Positions 13,137 through 21,259 of a DNA stretch of 64,000 bases are shown in pieces (position 1 is the first letter of the stretch; each line of letters starts with the position of its first letter). Under the pieces are notes generated by a model. That model searched no databases and was not told where the DNA came from. It was given only the letters and a program-made list of their open reading frames with translations. The position numbers were made by a program, and so were the translations under genes. This stretch comes from an uncultured Gammaproteobacteria bacterium (GTDB lineage: Bacteria > Pseudomonadota > Gammaproteobacteria > UBA9214). Where the stretch lies: positions 69,336 through 133,335 of the forward strand of contig CAVQJD010000011.1 of assembly GCA_963712695.1 (NCBI GenBank). The letters are read 5' to 3'.

Positions 13137-15496
13137 CTATTCCGCAGGTTTCACTTCGAGAGTGATCTGATTGATCTTTCCGGTAAACCGCGTCTCCGCA
13201 CCGATACCGATGCCCTCGGCGACCGGAGTCTGATTATCGAGGCCGACGTCCGCCGTCTCGTCCGCAGAGAAGATGTTGGGCTGAGTTTTTTCTACACGCC
13301 CCTCTGCAACGGGTTTACCGTTTACTTGCAGAGTTGCCTTGCCGCCCTTGCCGATCCCGCCACCGTCATAGTCGAAATCGAGCGTGACCGTTGCCGGGCC
13401 GGCCGGCAATGCCTTGGGTGCTGCGATGGTGTAGCGCTCCAGCCCCAGGAAGTTGTAGACGTAAGCGGGTTTGCCGTCCTTCATGTAGAGCGACCAGCCG
13501 CCAAAGCGCCCACCCTGGGACAGGATCGCGCCATTGGCACCGCCTTCCGGAATCTCGAGTTCGGCGGTGATCTTGCTGGATTGGTTCTTGATGTTCATGA
13601 AGGTGTTTTCCAGCATGCCCTGCATTCCCTCGTAGAGGGTGAGCGAGGTTCGGTCGCCGAGCACATCGGGCCGGCCGGCGAGCGCCGGGTTCGTGCGCTC
13701 GATCGTCCGATCGTCAATCGGCAGCACGTGGTACTTCTCGGCCTCCTTCATGAACAGGGCCTGCAGATCCTTCAGTTTGCCGGGTTGTTCAGCGGCCAGG
13801 TTCTTGGTGAGGCTGAAATCGCTCTTCACGTCATAAAGATCCCAGACGTCGGTCTTCAGGGGCGGCAGGTTAACTGTTTGCCAGGGCGCGCGGTGAATGG
13901 TGCGGGCAAGCCAGCCATCGTGATAGATCGCGCGATTGCCGAACATCTCGAAGTATTGCGTGGTGTGTCGTTCCGCGGCGTTCGGCATCGTCGAAGGTAT
14001 AGAGCATGCTGGTGCCCTCGATGGGTGTCTGCGGCGTGCCGTTCACACTCTTGGGCTCTGGCAGTCCGGCAGCTTCCAGAATGGTGGGGGCAACATCGAT
14101 CACGTGCGAGAACTGGCTGCGGATTTCGCCCTTGGCCTTGATACCCTTGGGCCAATGAATGACCGCACCGTTGCGGGTGCCACCGAAGTCGGAAGCCACC
14201 TGCTTGGTCCAGGAGAAAGGCGAGTCGAAGGCCACCGCCCAGCCGGCGGCCATATGCGGGAAGGTCTCCGGTCCGCCCCACTTGTCGATCAGCGGGATAA
14301 GATCCTCGACCTTCTCGGTAACGCCGTTGAAGTAGGTCATTTCGTTGTACATGCCGACAAAGCCACCTTCGGCACTGGTTCCGTTGTCGCCAGCGATATA
14401 GATGAACAGCGTGTTGTCCATCTCGTTGATGTCTTTCAGCGCTTGCACGAGTCGTCCGACCTCGTAATCGGTCTGTGCCATGAATCCGGCGAACACTTCG
14501 GCCTGGCGTGCGAAGAGACGTCGCTGCTCCGCAGGCAACTTGTCCCAATCCTTGATGTCCTCCGGCTTGGGAGCCAACTGGGTATTGGCTGGGATCACGC
14601 CCAGCTTCTTCTGTCGCTCGATGGTCTCCAGCCGAACCTGGTCCCAGCCCTTGTCGAACTGCCCCTTGTACTTGTCAGCCCATTCTTTGGGAACATGGTG
14701 CGGTGCATGGACGGCGCCGGTGGCGTAGTAGACGAAGAACGGTTTGTCCGGCGTCATCGACTGCTGGGCTTTCACCCAGTTGATCGCCTGGTTGGTCATG
14801 TCGACCGTGAAGTGATAGCCCTCGGTTTTCGGTGGATCGACCTTGGTCACGCCGTCGTAGACGAGCGGATACCACTGGTCGGTCTCACCCCCGATGAACC
14901 CGTAGAACTTGTCGAAACCCTGATGCGTGGGCCAGCGGTCATACGGGCCCGGACACACTGGTCTCCCAGGCGGCGGTTTCGTGCCACTTGCCGAAGGCTC
15001 CGGTGCTGTAGCCGTTGAGGCGCAGCATTTCTGCCAAAGGGGCAACGCTGTTCGGAATCTGCCCGGTGTTGCCGGGGAAGGCCGTCGCGGTCTCCATGAT
15101 CGAGCCGGTGTTGGTGGTGTGATGGTTGCGGCCGGTCTTCAGAGCGTTGCGCGTCGGCGAGCACAGCGCGGTCGTGTGAAAGTTGTTGAAGCGCAAGCCT
15201 GCATTGGCCAGTGAATCCAGCGTTGGCGTCTGGATGGGGCCGCCGAATGTGCTGGGGCCACCGAAGCCGATATCGTCGATCAGCACGATCACAACGTTGG
15301 GAGCTCCCTCGGGCGCCTTGACCTCAAAGCGTGCCGGAGCCTTGGCATTGCGTGCGTCGAGCTCTTTGTAAGTCGGTGGCTTCGGCTCTGCAATCGGCAG
15401 CATTGTGCGATCGAGCGTCTCCTGTGCCGCTACCACCCCAGCCGAACTGGCCAACAGGGCCGCTGCCATCCAGAAGGTTTTATACGGTGTCCTCAT
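13137..15496 (-). pseudogene. Arylsulfatase (formylglycine-type, CSPTR motif) disrupted by two frameshifts
   Basis: Three consecutive minus-strand ORFs (14939-15496, 13870-15045, 13137-13988) join into one ~780-aa sulfatase. It has a signal peptide and VIVLIDDIGFG...ALCSPTRNALKTGRNHH. Frame changes occur at ...TSVSGP|YDRWPTHQGFDKFYGF (about 14942-14951, in a GGGCCC run) and ...MLYTFDDA|AERHTTQYFEMFGNRAIYHDGW (about 13972-13985). Confidence 0.85.
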
Positions 15497-15922
15497 TTCT
15501 ATCTCCCTTCAAAATTTCTGAGTCATCAGCTAACGACAAGATCACCCGCATTGAATCTGGCGCTGGCGCGGTCGGCAAGCACCTTGGGTTCCGCAGGGAT
15601 TGTTTCCTCAGGGAGGCCCCACCACAGTTACCGCCATAAGGACAGCCATCAGCATTTCTATTTTCATTGTCTTCAATGTTTTCTACTTTTGTTTTGTTTT
15701 CCGGCTCACGGCGGGGGTTATCCACTCATGTCCACGCTCATAGGCGAACTTAGCCCCTCACTTTACCGGCTCTCCCTTTGGAAATCTCCACGACCCGTCT
15801 ATATTTGCCTGCTTCGGCTGATACATCCGTACGATGTACTTCCAGATAGTAGCGGTCTGTCCCTGAATGCACAACGACGGTGCACTCAGGTCATCCAGGA
15901 AGATATACAGAACTTCCGACTG

Positions 15923-16223
15923 GGGTCGACTCTCGCTGTTTAGCAATTACTGATACAGCCACAGCCTCTAGATCTTATCCCGGCCAAAACACATCTTACA
16001 TCTTTGCAAGATTGCGATATGAGCAAATCATACCGGCTGGCTACAGCATGAACGGGTACCAAGTCTGTTCCATTGTCCGGCTTAATTGCCGACAGCAATG
16101 CCGGGTGGATTTCGGAAAAACAGATATGTGGCAATCGCTGTCGCCCAGAATATTACGGTCGCGAACACAAAGAACCAGTCAAACCCGAAGACAATCGGGA
16201 TGAAGAACGAGACCAGGGAACCA
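15923..16223. repeat. Direct repeat copy A (partner 18752-19172)
   Basis: Positions 16033-16223 match 18982-19172 at 189/191 nt by eye. The left part (15923-16032) matches 18752-18981 more loosely, with a ~120-bp indel. Confidence 0.85.
16082..16223 (-). pseudogene. Orphan 3-prime fragment (last ~47 codons) of a paralogue/duplicate of the 742-aa membrane protein gene
   Basis: ORF 16082-16369 ends ...GSLVSFFIPIVFGFDWFFVFATVIFWATAIATYLFFRNPPGIAVGN, identical to the C-terminus of ORF 19031-21259. Similarity stops abruptly upstream of GSLVSFF (at 16223). Confidence 0.75.
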
Positions 16224-16602
16224 CGAGAAATAGGAGTCATTCCGACCAGTATTGTTGTACTTCGTTTCTTGGGTCGACTCCTGCCGATTAGCGGAATCCT
16301 GTACAAGAATTCCGTGGAGTACAGGGCGCACGCCATGAGTTGACGTTCCCCGATTTCAGAAAACTCCACCGATACTGGTTTCCAGGTTGCAATAGCAAAG
16401 AATAAAATAGATAGGGGAATCTGTACCTATGGCCATTCGGAGTCACTTCGGGCTTGCGGGACAATGCCACCAAACGAGTAATGACACGTGTCCGGACAAA
16501 AGATTTACGTGGCCACAGAAAGCCACGTCAGGGGTGTGTCTCAAGGACGCTAAATCCATAGGGTCGCGTGACAGTGGTATTGTACAGCCGTTTGTAACGC
16601 CC

Positions 16603-16631
16603 AAACAAAACCCCCTCCGCAAAGGAGGGGG
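16603..16631 (-). terminator. Rho-independent terminator after the 637-aa gene
   Basis: The minus strand reads ccccctcc-tttgc-ggaggggg followed by ttttgttt, 30 nt past the stop at 16661. Confidence 0.75.
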
Positions 16632-16660
16632 CTGTTTGTACTATTGCAGTGATTGACCGG

Positions 16661-18574
16661 TTACAAGGTATGCCAATGCCGCCTTGAACCAAGGTAGACC
16701 AGTGTACCCAACAGCAGCAGTGGGAACAGCGGGTCGAATCCACGCTGCATGCCGGTGACACTGCAACCACCTCCGCCGCCTCCGCCACCTCCGCCACCAC
16801 CGACCGCGGGTGCTTCCACGGCGCCGACATCGCAGATTACGACGCCATCACCGTTGCCATCATTCCGGCGCGGGAAGCCCACGCCGCGCTGATCGACATT
16901 GCCATACAGCCCGACCAGCGTCTGGCAGACTGCATCGTCACCCGCCTCGATAGCCGGGCTGCCGCCACCGATGGCGTGAGTTTCGGTCAGGCCACCGTTG
17001 TCCTGCAGCAGGCCCAGCAGGGCATCGGTAGTGATCTGGTCCTGGAGTACCGCCGGATCCATGTCGCAATCGTTACCGTCCTCGATGTTGGAACCGCCCG
17101 AGACCATGATATTCGGATTACAGGCGCCACCACCGCTGCAGCCGCAGTTGACGAGCACCGGCAGAGCCGGCAGAACCGGCACCTTCTGATTGTTCTGCAA
17201 GACTGTATTGGTGAAATTGAAGATACCGGCACCGAAGGCGTTCAGACCGGCACCACCGCCAGGGGCATCAGTGGTCGCGACATTATCCACCACCGTGACA
17301 TTGCGCAGGTTTACCGTGCCGTTGGTGGTGATACCACCGCCGACATCGGTCGCCTGGTTGGTGCTCACCGTGCTGTTGTCCAGGTCGATGGTGACACCCG
17401 CGCGCCCGGCGATACCACCGCCGCCGATGGCGTTGTTGCCATTGATGGCACTGCCGGCGATGGTGGTGGTGTGCGAACCGGTATCGAACAGACCACCGCC
17501 GTTCTCCGCCACGTTGGGATTGGTCAGCTCGATGGGGGCCGCGGCATCGAATAGCATGCCGACCGTGGTATTGGTCATGGTCAGTATGGCGTCGTTGTAG
17601 ATACCGCCGCCGTTGGCATTGCTGGTATTGCCGCTGACAATGGACTCGGTGACGGTCGCCGGCACGGCACTGTAGAGGCCGCCACCGTCCGCGCCGGCCC
17701 AGCTGGCGACGACGGCCACCCGGTTCAGCGTCACGTTGGTAATGCCCACGGTGTCATCTTCGCCGGGCTTGCCGCCGGGGAACGGTCCGCCATTGTCGGA
17801 ACCACCACCGCCAATGCCACCCCCCGCACCACCGCCAGAGCCGTGCACGGATTCCACATACTCCACCACGGCATTGGACGCACCCAGGCCAATGGCACCG
17901 CCCATGCGGCGGAACTGCCAGATGTCCACGCTGCCCGGGTTCGCGTTGACTACATTGATGTCATAGGCATTGGGGCCCGTGGCCGCCAGGGAGGTTGCGT
18001 CCGTGGGAATTAGGCCTACCTCGCCGTTCCTGATCGCCAGGTCCTGGATCACCACACTGTTGATGGCACCCGTCGCGGTGGTTGTCTGGACGTGAAAGAT
18101 GCGATCGCCGGTCAGCGGGTCGGCATCGGGTGCCGCCGCGGCCCACTCGATTAGAGTCTGGTCCACACCGGCACCCGTGATGGTCACGTCACCGGTGATA
18201 TCAAGGTCGCCCATACTGGCATCCGCCGTGACCACCGGTACGTAGGGGTCTGCAAGTGTACCTGTCCCCGTACAGGGCACGGCACCATCGCAGCGCTCGT
18301 CCACGCCAGCAAGCGTCAGGGTGATCGTGCCCGCCGGCACGGAAATCGTGTCGGCACCGGCCAGCGCATTGGCCTCCATCACCGCCGCACGCAGGGTGCA
18401 GTCGGCAGTAGCCAGCGTGGCCTCGCAGACCCCGTCTCCCGGCGTTATGTCCACTGCATCTGTAAGGTTATTGACAGTAAAAACTGCTGCTTGGACAGCG
18501 CTTGCACCAAGTCCGCATATGCTAGCCAGGACAAGACCAATTGTGTGTTCACTTATTGTTCTGAATTTAATCAT
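16661..18574 (-). CDS. Secreted right-handed beta-helix protein: CSLREA-type N-terminal motif, Pmp-like GGG[IL] repeats, choice-of-anchor-Q-like end (CDVGAVEA), then a Gly12 linker and C-terminal sorting-signal-like tail
   Basis: 637 aa. The signal peptide is MIKFRTISEHTIGLVLASICGLGASAVQA, followed by GDGVCEATLATADCTLRAAVMEAN. There are repeated NGGGIY/NGGGLF/GGGGIA/VGGGIT ... N.T...N motifs. The tail reads CDVGAVEAPAV-G12-CSVTGMQRGFDPLFPLLLLGTLVYLGSRRHWHTL. Confidence 0.8.
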   Translation of the reverse strand: MIKFRTISEHTIGLVLASICGLGASAVQAAVFTVNNLTDAVDITPGDGVCEATLATADCTLRAAVMEANALAGADTISVPAGTITLTLAGVDERCDGAVPCTGTGTLADPYVPVVTADASMGDLDITGDVTITGAGVDQTLIEWAAAAPDADPLTGDRIFHVQTTTATGAINSVVIQDLAIRNGEVGLIPTDATSLAATGPNAYDINVVNANPGSVDIWQFRRMGGAIGLGASNAVVEYVESVHGSGGGAGGGIGGGGSDNGGPFPGGKPGEDDTVGITNVTLNRVAVVASWAGADGGGLYSAVPATVTESIVSGNTSNANGGGIYNDAILTMTNTTVGMLFDAAAPIELTNPNVAENGGGLFDTGSHTTTIAGSAINGNNAIGGGGIAGRAGVTIDLDNSTVSTNQATDVGGGITTNGTVNLRNVTVVDNVATTDAPGGGAGLNAFGAGIFNFTNTVLQNNQKVPVLPALPVLVNCGCSGGGACNPNIMVSGGSNIEDGNDCDMDPAVLQDQITTDALLGLLQDNGGLTETHAIGGGSPAIEAGDDAVCQTLVGLYGNVDQRGVGFPRRNDGNGDGVVICDVGAVEAPAVGGGGGGGGGGGGCSVTGMQRGFDPLFPLLLLGTLVYLGSRRHWHTL

Positions 18575-18751
18575 GAGCCTTTATCTCCTCCAATTAAGAC
18601 TACCCCCCGAAAGAAAATCATCTTCTAGTGTGAGGAGAATCATACGCGTGTCAAGTTAATAAGATGTTCTTATAGTACGAGTGTTGTGTAAAGGTGGTTT
18701 TTCGCGACAAGTCGTTGTTTACATAAGCTGCGTCAGCTACAGGTCCGATTA

Positions 18752-19172
18752 GGGTCGACTCTCGCGGTTTAGCAATTCAATTACTGATACGGATTCGGCA
18801 TCCAGGTCTTATACCCGCCAAAACACATCAACCTACTCGCGAACGGCAAATTCGATGCAGGACATTATATCCTTTTATCTAGCAGGCAAACCTGATCAGC
18901 TCACTGGCTGATTGACAACTCTTATTTAGATGAGTGCCTCAACCAGAACCATCAACTTTGCAAGGTTGCAATATGAGCAAACCGGCTGGCTACGGCATGA
19001 ACGGGTACCAAGTCTGTTCCATTGTCCGGCTTAATTGCCGACAGCAATGCCGGGTGGATTTCGGAAAAACAGATATGTGGCAATCGCTGTCGCCCAGAAT
19101 ATTACGGTCGCGAACACAAAGAACCAGTCAAACCCGAAGACAATCGGGATGAAGAACGAAACCAGGGAACCA
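18752..19172. repeat. Direct repeat copy B (partner 15923-16223)
   Basis: It covers the last 142 nt of the 742-aa gene plus ~280 nt downstream of it. See copy A for the alignment. Confidence 0.85.
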
Positions 19173-21259
19173 ATGGCTGCGCCAATGGAGTCAGCGGCAA
19201 AGACTCCAAGCGGATTATCTGCTGCTGCTTCAAATACTGCCGGAAAGAAACTGCCCGTAACGAATGCCACCGGAGCAAGCAACGCGAGATTCGCCCACGG
19301 CGACAGGCTCGCATGCGTGAACAGCAGCACCAGAATGAACAATCCGCCGATAAACTGCAGCAGCGGACGCTGGCCGGGCCTGATGAAGGTACTGCCAAGC
19401 CCGGATATGACCAGGAAACTGATCGCCCCGAGTACCAGTGCGTCATGATAGATATACAGCTTCCTGAACAGTGCCAGAATCAGATAATGCTCGATTACCA
19501 GAAAGTTGGCGCCTATGAACAGACTTATCAGTATGACCTGCGGGAAAGTTTTCCCGGGAATTTTCGGGTCTCCACTTTTTTTCAACAGCAGGTACAGAAA
19601 GCCGGCAAATACCGCCAGCAGGCCACCGACCAGCGCGAACAGCTTGCCGACCTGCTGCGTGGAAAAGATATGCTGGACATTCCCGGCCAGGAACGGCTGG
19701 TCGTCGCTGATGGGCCTGAATGCCGAACGATCCCAGCTGCCTCCCAGTTCCACGGGCATGTCAACGAAAAAGGGCGCTAATCCCGCGCCCACTCTGGCAA
19801 CGACCGGCTGAATATAAAACGCCTGTACCTCACCGAGTGCGGGCAGGTTTTCTGACCTTCTCGCGGCCATAATCAGGAACTCACCGCGATTCCGGTAGAC
19901 GCGGACCTGCAGCCCGATGTCCGGGCTCGCCAGTGTGTGCATGTATTGTTCTGTCAGGATGGACCGTGGATCGAGCACGGATGGATACCAGATGGCCAGC
20001 ACCCCTTCCTCCGTCAGGTGGTTGCTGAGTGTCTTGTAGGCTTCGAGGGTACGTATCATGTTACCGGGCTCCAGCATCATCTGCGGGTATCCGCCAACGC
20101 TGGGGAGATAAATCAGGTCAAAACGCTCAGCGGAGTTTTCCATAAAGCTGCGTGCTTCATGGTTGACCACTTCCACGCTACTGTCCTGGTACACGTGGTC
20201 GAAACGCTCGGCAAGAACCCCCTGCACCGCCCTGATAACGGCCGGCTCGATCTCAATGGCCAGGATCTTCCTGAAATCGTGCCCCGATTTACGTGCGTAT
20301 TGCACCTGGCGGCCGCCACCTGCACCGATGATTGCAATCCGGCCACCCGGTGGCGCCCACTCAAGCGGCAGCATCCCGATATTGTGCTCGAAATAGCCAT
20401 TGCCAGGGGCATAACGCCACTGAATGATGTCGTTGTAGAAACCGATGTAGTGTTCCATCCCGGTTTTCTGCATGACCTCGACGAGACTGTAGGTGCCCCA
20501 TTCCTGGTATATGGTCTGGTAACCCTGCTGGCTGGCATAGGCATGGGTGGACTGCATGCTGGTGCCCTTGTACAAGTGCAGGAAGCCACTTTCAAGCTGT
20601 GGCACGAACAGCAACACGGCAATAACCGACTGCTGGAAAAACAACAACCGGCTTGCCCGGGCAGGCGGGCTGAGCAGCAGCATTGACACGGCGACCAGCA
20701 GAAACGGAATGCCCAGAAGACGCGCAGCACCCAGCAGCGGGAAGGCGAACTCTGCAAACAGGTACGCCCCGGCCGCGCCAAACAGGTACAGCGCATAAAC
20801 TACCGGCATCCGGCCCTTGAGGTGCCTGCGGCCGATCTGGTACCCAACGTATTCGCTCAGTCCGTAGGCAAGAAAAAACGGCAGAAACAACAGCGTGAAC
20901 GTGAGCATCTGGACGAACAGACGCTGCAGCTCGACATCGAACAGGTGCGCCCGGAGGTAGTCAAAATGCTTGCTGGTCAGCATGGCAAGGATGGAAACGA
21001 CCATCGCCCCCTGCAGGATCCATAATGCATTCAGAAAGGACTGGTTGCTGATGCGCAGGAAATAGGCACCTGCCAGCGCACCCAGGGGAAAGCCGATGAA
21101 CAGCAGGTCGAAAAACAGCGACGGCATGATGAAGAAGGTGAGCAGCCGGAACAGGACAATGGTGAACAGGACGGTAGCGAACGACAGCAGAAACAGCACC
21201 AGCGGAAGTTTCCGGGGGCTCAAACGTTCTCCAGCTGCATGTTGTCCGGGTGATGGCAT
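19031..21259 (-). CDS. Polytopic membrane protein with a central spermidine-synthase-like (class I SAM-dependent fold) domain; resembles fused MFS/spermidine synthase proteins
   Basis: 742 aa. Residues ~17-215 and ~525-742 are runs of hydrophobic helices (about 6 each). The central ~300 aa carries GGRIAIIGAGGGRQVQYA...ILAIEIEPAVI...FDLIYLPSVGG, which looks like a SpeE/methyltransferase Rossmann pattern. Confidence 0.75.
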   Translation of the reverse strand: MPSPGQHAAGERLSPRKLPLVLFLLSFATVLFTIVLFRLLTFFIMPSLFFDLLFIGFPLGALAGAYFLRISNQSFLNALWILQGAMVVSILAMLTSKHFDYLRAHLFDVELQRLFVQMLTFTLLFLPFFLAYGLSEYVGYQIGRRHLKGRMPVVYALYLFGAAGAYLFAEFAFPLLGAARLLGIPFLLVAVSMLLLSPPARASRLLFFQQSVIAVLLFVPQLESGFLHLYKGTSMQSTHAYASQQGYQTIYQEWGTYSLVEVMQKTGMEHYIGFYNDIIQWRYAPGNGYFEHNIGMLPLEWAPPGGRIAIIGAGGGRQVQYARKSGHDFRKILAIEIEPAVIRAVQGVLAERFDHVYQDSSVEVVNHEARSFMENSAERFDLIYLPSVGGYPQMMLEPGNMIRTLEAYKTLSNHLTEEGVLAIWYPSVLDPRSILTEQYMHTLASPDIGLQVRVYRNRGEFLIMAARRSENLPALGEVQAFYIQPVVARVGAGLAPFFVDMPVELGGSWDRSAFRPISDDQPFLAGNVQHIFSTQQVGKLFALVGGLLAVFAGFLYLLLKKSGDPKIPGKTFPQVILISLFIGANFLVIEHYLILALFRKLYIYHDALVLGAISFLVISGLGSTFIRPGQRPLLQFIGGLFILVLLFTHASLSPWANLALLAPVAFVTGSFFPAVFEAAADNPLGVFAADSIGAAIGSLVSFFIPIVFGFDWFFVFATVIFWATAIATYLFFRNPPGIAVGN

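Follow-up and report, generated by a model that had tools for sequence, protein, structure and literature searches.

The DNA analysed here, a stretch of 64,000 nt (the window) from contig CAVQJD010000011.1 of the uncultured gammaproteobacterial assembly GCA_963712695.1 (UBA9214 lineage; positions 69,336 to 133,335 of the forward strand), carries on its minus strand an intact open reading frame (ORF; 16661..18574) for a 637-residue protein whose C-terminal tail is, with high probability, a JDVT-CTERM protein-sorting domain, borne by a choice-of-anchor Q surface protein with a beta-helix fold that is exported through Sec. The gene and its parts were defined from an ORF list with translations, NCBIfam searches and an AlphaFold model. 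When the whole protein was searched, the JDVT-CTERM model NF033191 matched residues 599-633 (16676..16780) over positions 1-34 of its 35 and scored 37.0 bits (E = 3.4e-11; curated cut-off 27 bits), and both the tail alone and a six-frame search of the genome gave 42.9 bits. The match lies at the extreme C-terminus, ending at residue 633 of 637, in a protein in which an N-terminal signal peptide can be recognized by eye; Pfam searches of the whole protein and of the tail gave no match. NF033191 scored above its cut-off in none of 14 control genomes searched in six frames, and since the E-value is as low as it is, and the Cys, Asp-Pro and basic end are kept in all of the 16 closest homologues, the tail pattern is not due to chance.

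Features of the tail

The last 57 residues of the protein read CDVGAVEAPAV-G12-CSVTGMQRGFDPLFPLLLLGTLVYLGSRRHWHTL, exactly as reported in a first-pass annotation made from the DNA sequence alone. In the published description of JDVT-CTERM tails, the motif always contains one Cys, which follows a Gly run; the hallmark is an Asp-Pro that is nearly invariant and stands some nine residues past the Cys, where the helix begins, and the transmembrane segment is rich in Leu and the end in Arg (Haft, bioRxiv 10.1101/2023.06.07.544157). All of these features are found here. The run of twelve glycines (Gly12; residues 592-603, 16766-16801) is followed directly by Cys604 (16763-16765), which is the sole Cys of the tail, is invariant in the alignments and is the presumed site of modification and cleavage, going by Haft's description and by analogy with a related system discussed below. 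Nine residues separate it from Asp614, which with Pro615 (16730-16735) opens the helix; the hydrophobic segment LFPLLLLGTLVYLGS forms a Leu-rich putative transmembrane helix (residues 616-630, 16685-16729) and gives way to the basic end RRHWH (R631, R632, H633, W634 and H635; 16670-16684), which is predicted to be cytoplasmic. The AlphaFold model has residues 577-613 disordered and a helix at 616-636, the latter with the highest confidence within the tail (means of 59, 83 and 65 for its 10-residue blocks).

The first-pass annotation took the tail for a tripartite sorting signal of the processed type, in the Cys-containing class akin to MYXO-CTERM, and the NF033191 match bears this out. It was wrong to place the signature outside the canonical ones, as the 37.0 bits with NF033191 (cut-off 27) make plain, and the 15 residues that it counted from the Gly run to the helix are the normal JDVT layout in Haft's description; the gap is ordinary because JDVT-CTERM places the Cys after the Gly run and the Asp-Pro some nine residues farther on. 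The tail is thus an ordinary member of a catalogued family and already known.

Conservation among homologues

The 16 closest homologues (54-78 % identity) all end in the pattern Cys-x9-(F/V/Y)DP-hydrophobic-RRR, and NCBI names the close homologues 'choice-of-anchor Q domain-containing protein'. An unbroken run of 4-11 Gly stands directly before the Cys in 13 of them, and shorter or interrupted Gly/Ser stretches occupy this place in the other three, so that Gly12, the longest run seen, is the long end of a continuum, given that the runs of the homologues vary in length. The Gly run before the Cys is in other words a length-variable spacer, ranging from short, interrupted Gly/Ser up to 12 residues. 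In the 21 aligned tails (A2), two Gly never vary, nor do the Cys, the Asp and the Pro; the last three are likewise invariant across 20 aligned full-length homologues (A3), and the first Arg of the basic end is near-invariant in both. The basic cluster of the 637-residue protein is weaker than in any close homologue. The orthologue in the congeneric genome G002 lies at a contig end, and its gene context is uninformative.

Clients and MrtJ genes across genomes

The tail is no singleton, since two further JDVT-type tails occur in the same genome. A lineage profile made from the 21 tails returns these three tails and none further in the genome, all three having been part of it. The second client is a multihaem-cytochrome-like protein with a tail scoring 38.9 bits in the six-frame search and 34.2 bits as a translated ORF, and the third is a protein of 270 residues whose tail scores 21.9 and 25.9 bits respectively, both below threshold with the generic model; with the lineage model, which includes them, these two tails reach 48.2 and 45.5 bits. 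The cytochrome-like client (L002:1495-3102, on contig C4 of the assembly, G000) is more than 535 residues long and has several CxxCH haem motifs. The ORF of the 270-residue client (L003:823-1635, G000:C12) abuts an upstream 272-residue ORF in another frame and may thus be part of one larger, frameshifted gene. Two GspD secretins score over the cut-off in the genome, so a type II secretion system (T2SS) route exists there.

The enzyme associated with JDVT-CTERM is MrtJ (model NF033192, cut-off 75 bits). An intact MrtJ of more than 99 bits is present in 20 of 24 congeners, in one copy each except for G019, which has two, and 14 of the 24 have one to four tails above the cut-off. In these genomes the tails and mrtJ are far apart or on different contigs. 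Upstream of mrtJ lies the 3′ end of an SseB-like gene, and this DNA is apparently homologous in the six congeners inspected (by eye, in out-of-frame translations), which suggests that mrtJ occupies a fixed slot across the genus. Two genomes that are more distant, G025 and G035, have tail and mrtJ side by side, and the homologue P0011 (58 % identical) adjoins, divergently, a gene for a 163-residue MrtJ (101.5 bits), with a gap of 474 bp without a called gene between them. This pair is the published two-gene arrangement, in which the client was adjacent to mrtJ in 16 of 17 cases (Haft, bioRxiv 10.1101/2023.06.07.544157); adjacency of this kind is usual in the family without defining it.

These comparisons bear on the view that the tail is a genuinely new sorting signal, as the first-pass annotation suggested, with an unknown enzyme of its own, which we consider very improbable. 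The uncommonly long Gly12 run, a basic end that is weak and the absence of an adjacent protease gene would favour it, but the Gly runs form a continuum of length among the homologues, a bona fide MrtJ accompanies an orthologous protein, almost the whole genus has MrtJ, and the match to NF033191 is confident. It is this existing model that refutes a new signal, and the claim that the tail falls outside the existing sorting-domain models fails with it.

The mrtJ locus of this genome

The likeness to the JDVT-CTERM/MrtJ system (NF033191, NF033192) extends from the domain match, the single Cys after a Gly run, the Asp-Pro, the Leu-rich helix and the basic end to the N-terminal signal peptide (by eye), the proteobacterial host, an mrtJ gene in the genome, broken as assembled, and the homologue that lies beside mrtJ. 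The genome has a single mrtJ locus (G000:C26:112740-113200; L005:1485-1945, minus strand), which as assembled contains internal stops and scores 49.2 bits with the MrtJ model, and 87.1 bits once its frames are stitched together. The gene is present over its whole length and its catalytic motifs are all readable (EEIVFRG, FTGLHF and HVFYN), but it is spread over three frames; the SseB-like gene just upstream also has at least two frame changes.

Several observations weigh against this reading of the tail and its processing or set the present case apart from the published system. In a DNA alignment with three congeneric genes, mrtJ has lost single nucleotides at three places, gained 2 nt at one and carries a TAC>TAG stop, that is, five lesions in about 460 nt with none in a homopolymer, and a PF02517 scan of the assembled 2.33 Mb found no other CPBP gene; because mrtJ is broken and no other such gene is found, the genome as assembled has no intact sorting enzyme. 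The client is on contig C11 and mrtJ on C26, in its apparent fixed slot, so that the two are not adjacent, and there are three clients here (0-4 in the congeners) as against a published emphasis on one client beside its protease ('typically one'). Within the tail itself, the Gly run reaches twelve residues, and the basic cluster consists of RR and two His, weaker than the RRR(R) usual in the family. Finally, the cleavage, lipidation and T2SS route proposed for JDVT-CTERM and MrtJ are drawn by analogy from MrtX and MYXO-CTERM. The unlinked mrtJ, the several clients, the longest Gly run, the weak basic end and the broken-looking mrtJ leave the classification unchanged.

What these lesions mean for the protein is a separate matter. 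The tail may be an orphaned signal, JDVT-CTERM by descent, in a strain that has truly lost mrtJ, so that the uncleaved tail would serve as an inner-membrane anchor or the protein would be decaying; we think this possible, if doubtful. The density of the mrtJ lesions, their position outside homopolymers and the one nonsense substitution among them point this way, as do the lack of another PF02517 gene in the assembled sequence, a basic cluster weaker than in any close homologue and the location of the client gene between decayed neighbours (a frameshifted arylsulfatase gene and a duplicated gene end). On the other hand, the three catalytic motifs of MrtJ are still clean, the 637-residue client ORF is intact, and the genome is rated 61 % complete (28 contigs), so that a second mrtJ copy, such as congener G019 has, could be missing from it. 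Moreover, dense frame breaks occur in patches elsewhere in the same assembly. There are two biotin-carboxylase (accC-type) loci, G000:C23:78832-80143 and G000:C26:177137-178462, of which only one is intact (621.6 bits); its counterpart lies in seven or more frame pieces, which is evidence of such patches. The lesions outside homopolymers and the nonsense change favour reading mrtJ as a true pseudogene, and the shattered biotin-carboxylase locus weakens that reading.

We also put forward, as a speculation that is rather unlikely to hold in full, that the MrtJ of this genus is a stand-alone housekeeping enzyme, encoded in an apparently fixed slot and serving 0-4 unlinked clients instead of a single adjacent one, and that in the present strain mrtJ has decayed and left behind three intact but orphaned clients whose tails act as inner-membrane anchors only.

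Comparison with other sorting systems

The closest parallel among the other systems is MYXO-CTERM with its enzyme MrtX (TIGR03901; Guo, Haft & Wall, mBio 2025, PMC11980579), which shares with the JDVT-CTERM tail the tripartite plan and an invariant Cys after Gly, and the enzyme of which belongs to the same CPBP subfamily as MrtJ; in addition, passenger homologues from Polyangiales and Myxococcales carry MYXO-CTERM at the same position. MYXO-CTERM tails differ, however, in often having a second Cys (GCGC), and in a helix that has neither Asp-Pro nor other charged or Pro residues, whereas the tail of the 637-residue protein has Asp-Pro plus a second Pro at the start of its helix; the myxosortases differ from MrtJ in having extra N-terminal domains. 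The MYXO-CTERM model TIGR03901 gives the protein 14.4 bits, below its cut-off of 20. GlyGly-CTERM with rhombosortase resembles the present case in its Gly-rich stretch, hydrophobic helix, basic end and surface delivery through the T2SS (here predicted), and rhombotarget A, its target, has a beta-helix as well (a weak fold match). In GlyGly-CTERM, by contrast, the Gly-Gly abuts the helix, there is no Cys and the enzyme is a serine protease of the rhomboid family. Neither the GlyGly-CTERM nor the PEP-CTERM model matched in the NCBIfam search of the protein, even at E <= 10.

That the tail belongs to one of these other catalogued classes (MYXO-CTERM, GlyGly-CTERM/rhombosortase or PEP-CTERM/exosortase) is therefore most improbable. 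The weak MYXO-CTERM score of 14.4 bits, the Gly run ahead of a hydrophobic segment and the weak fold matches to rhombotarget A, a beta-helix GlyGly-CTERM protein, could be cited in its favour, but the MYXO-CTERM score is under the cut-off of 20, the tail has one Cys and an Asp-Pro that MYXO-CTERM lacks, the Cys motif parts the Gly run from the helix, and neither a GlyGly-CTERM nor a PEP-CTERM model matches at E <= 10. At the level of model scores this assignment is refuted.

Proposed processing

MrtX is the only experimentally proven member of the class, its cleavage of MYXO-CTERM having been shown experimentally (PMC11980579), and it serves as the model for the following scheme. The 637-residue protein would be exported by the Sec pathway, after which helix 616-630 would anchor it transiently in the inner membrane while its RRH end stays in the cytoplasm. 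The next step would be a modification of Cys604, probably lipidation, whereupon MrtJ, as a glutamic intramembrane protease of the CPBP family, might cut just after the Cys and release the helix; the T2SS would finally deliver the protein to the cell surface. Gly12 may serve as a flexible spacer that separates the folded passenger from the membrane, possibly expanded by slippage of a 9-nt repeat.

Passenger domain and alternative anchors

The protein is a secreted beta-helix with a CSLREA-like N-terminus, a choice-of-anchor Q domain and the JDVT-CTERM tail. The choice-of-anchor Q model NF041518 matches residues 517-588 (16811..17026) at 53.4 bits, with a cut-off of 25 bits, and the CSLREA-like N-terminal motif scores 14.8 bits, which is below its cut-off. 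The AlphaFold model, built on 20 homologues, has a mean pLDDT of 70.7 and a pTM of 0.71, with a confident beta-helix core at about residues 30-500. Foldseek returned weak fold-class matches to right-handed beta-helices (pectate lyases, rhombotarget A and the epimerase AlgE6). The TM-scores do not exceed 0.46, and the search assigned no function to the passenger, for which an adhesin or an enzyme acting on polysaccharides would be the obvious guess.

The anchors attached to this passenger vary among its more distant homologues. Gammaproteobacterial ones carry JDVT-CTERM (49.2 bits), those from the Myxococcota (Polyangiales, Myxococcales and Sandaracinaceae) carry MYXO-CTERM (GCGC, 30 bits), and others have different hydrophobic tails or none. 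The swap of JDVT-CTERM and MYXO-CTERM on the same passenger is as expected of a choice-of-anchor domain.

We note a further kind of ending in passenger homologues from Chloroflexota (L049, L059, L061, L063, L065, L066, L067, L070, L072 and L106), in which a short conserved motif, (Y/F)(L/I)(Y/F)LP(L/I)(I/V/L)(V/L)K(P/S)-COOH, follows directly after the choice-of-anchor Q domain, with neither a transmembrane helix nor an Arg cluster. For the three of these ends that were searched (L049, L065 and L072), NCBIfam matched choice_anch_Q only and no model for the end itself. It is possible that the motif is a short signal for sorting or anchoring that has not been catalogued.

Gene organization and flanking DNA

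The Sec-type signal peptide recognized by eye spans residues 1-29 (MIKFRT...GASAVQA/AVF; 18488..18574) and consists of a basic n-region, a hydrophobic core and a VQA-A site; residues 2-22 form a helix in the AlphaFold model. The cleavage site (A/V)QA-A(D/N)F is common to the closest homologues P0002, P0003, P0004 and P0006, and the signal peptides of more distant homologues end differently (P0005, ALA-ADF; P0011, VFA-ADF; P0012, YA-LDF). At the other end of the gene, a terminator scan predicts a strong intrinsic terminator at 16609-16633 (16599..16633, minus strand, for the hairpin with its T-tail), which starts 28 nt past the stop codon (16661-16663) and has a stem of 10 pairs, seven of them GC, followed by TTGTTTGGGC. 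The DNA encoding Gly12 is a tandem repeat of 9 nt in four copies (TRF: period 9, 4.0 copies, 16767-16802).

A direct repeat of about 300 bp flanks the beta-helix gene on both sides (15915-16223 and 18744-19172 of the window). Its core of 195 nt is 98 % identical between the copies (16029-16223 and 18978-19172), and an indel of about 120 nt lies further out. Copy B holds the final 47 codons of a gene for a 742-residue membrane/SpeE-like protein (19031..21259, minus strand), and copy A is an orphan duplicate of the end of this gene. The flanking repeat suggests that a duplication or insertion event either brought the JDVT-CTERM gene or came after it. A fragment of an rve_3 transposase adjoins the gene of the closest homologue, P0002. 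Elsewhere in the window, an arylsulfatase gene (13137-15496), with a signal peptide and a CSPTR motif, is spread over three overlapping minus-strand ORFs and therefore contains at least two frameshifts.

Biological meaning

For the protein itself the identification of its tail matters little beyond annotation, for which the apt name is JDVT-CTERM, choice-of-anchor Q domain-containing surface protein. P0011 and the neighbouring MrtJ gene make up a small client/enzyme pair and would be a convenient system in which to examine JDVT-CTERM/MrtJ processing at the bench. For the family, one and the same passenger exchanges JDVT-CTERM for MYXO-CTERM across phyla, and there is one genus in which the several clients are not linked to MrtJ. 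If mrtJ has indeed decayed in the present strain while its three clients stayed intact, the strain would offer a natural snapshot of how a sorting system is lost enzyme-first.

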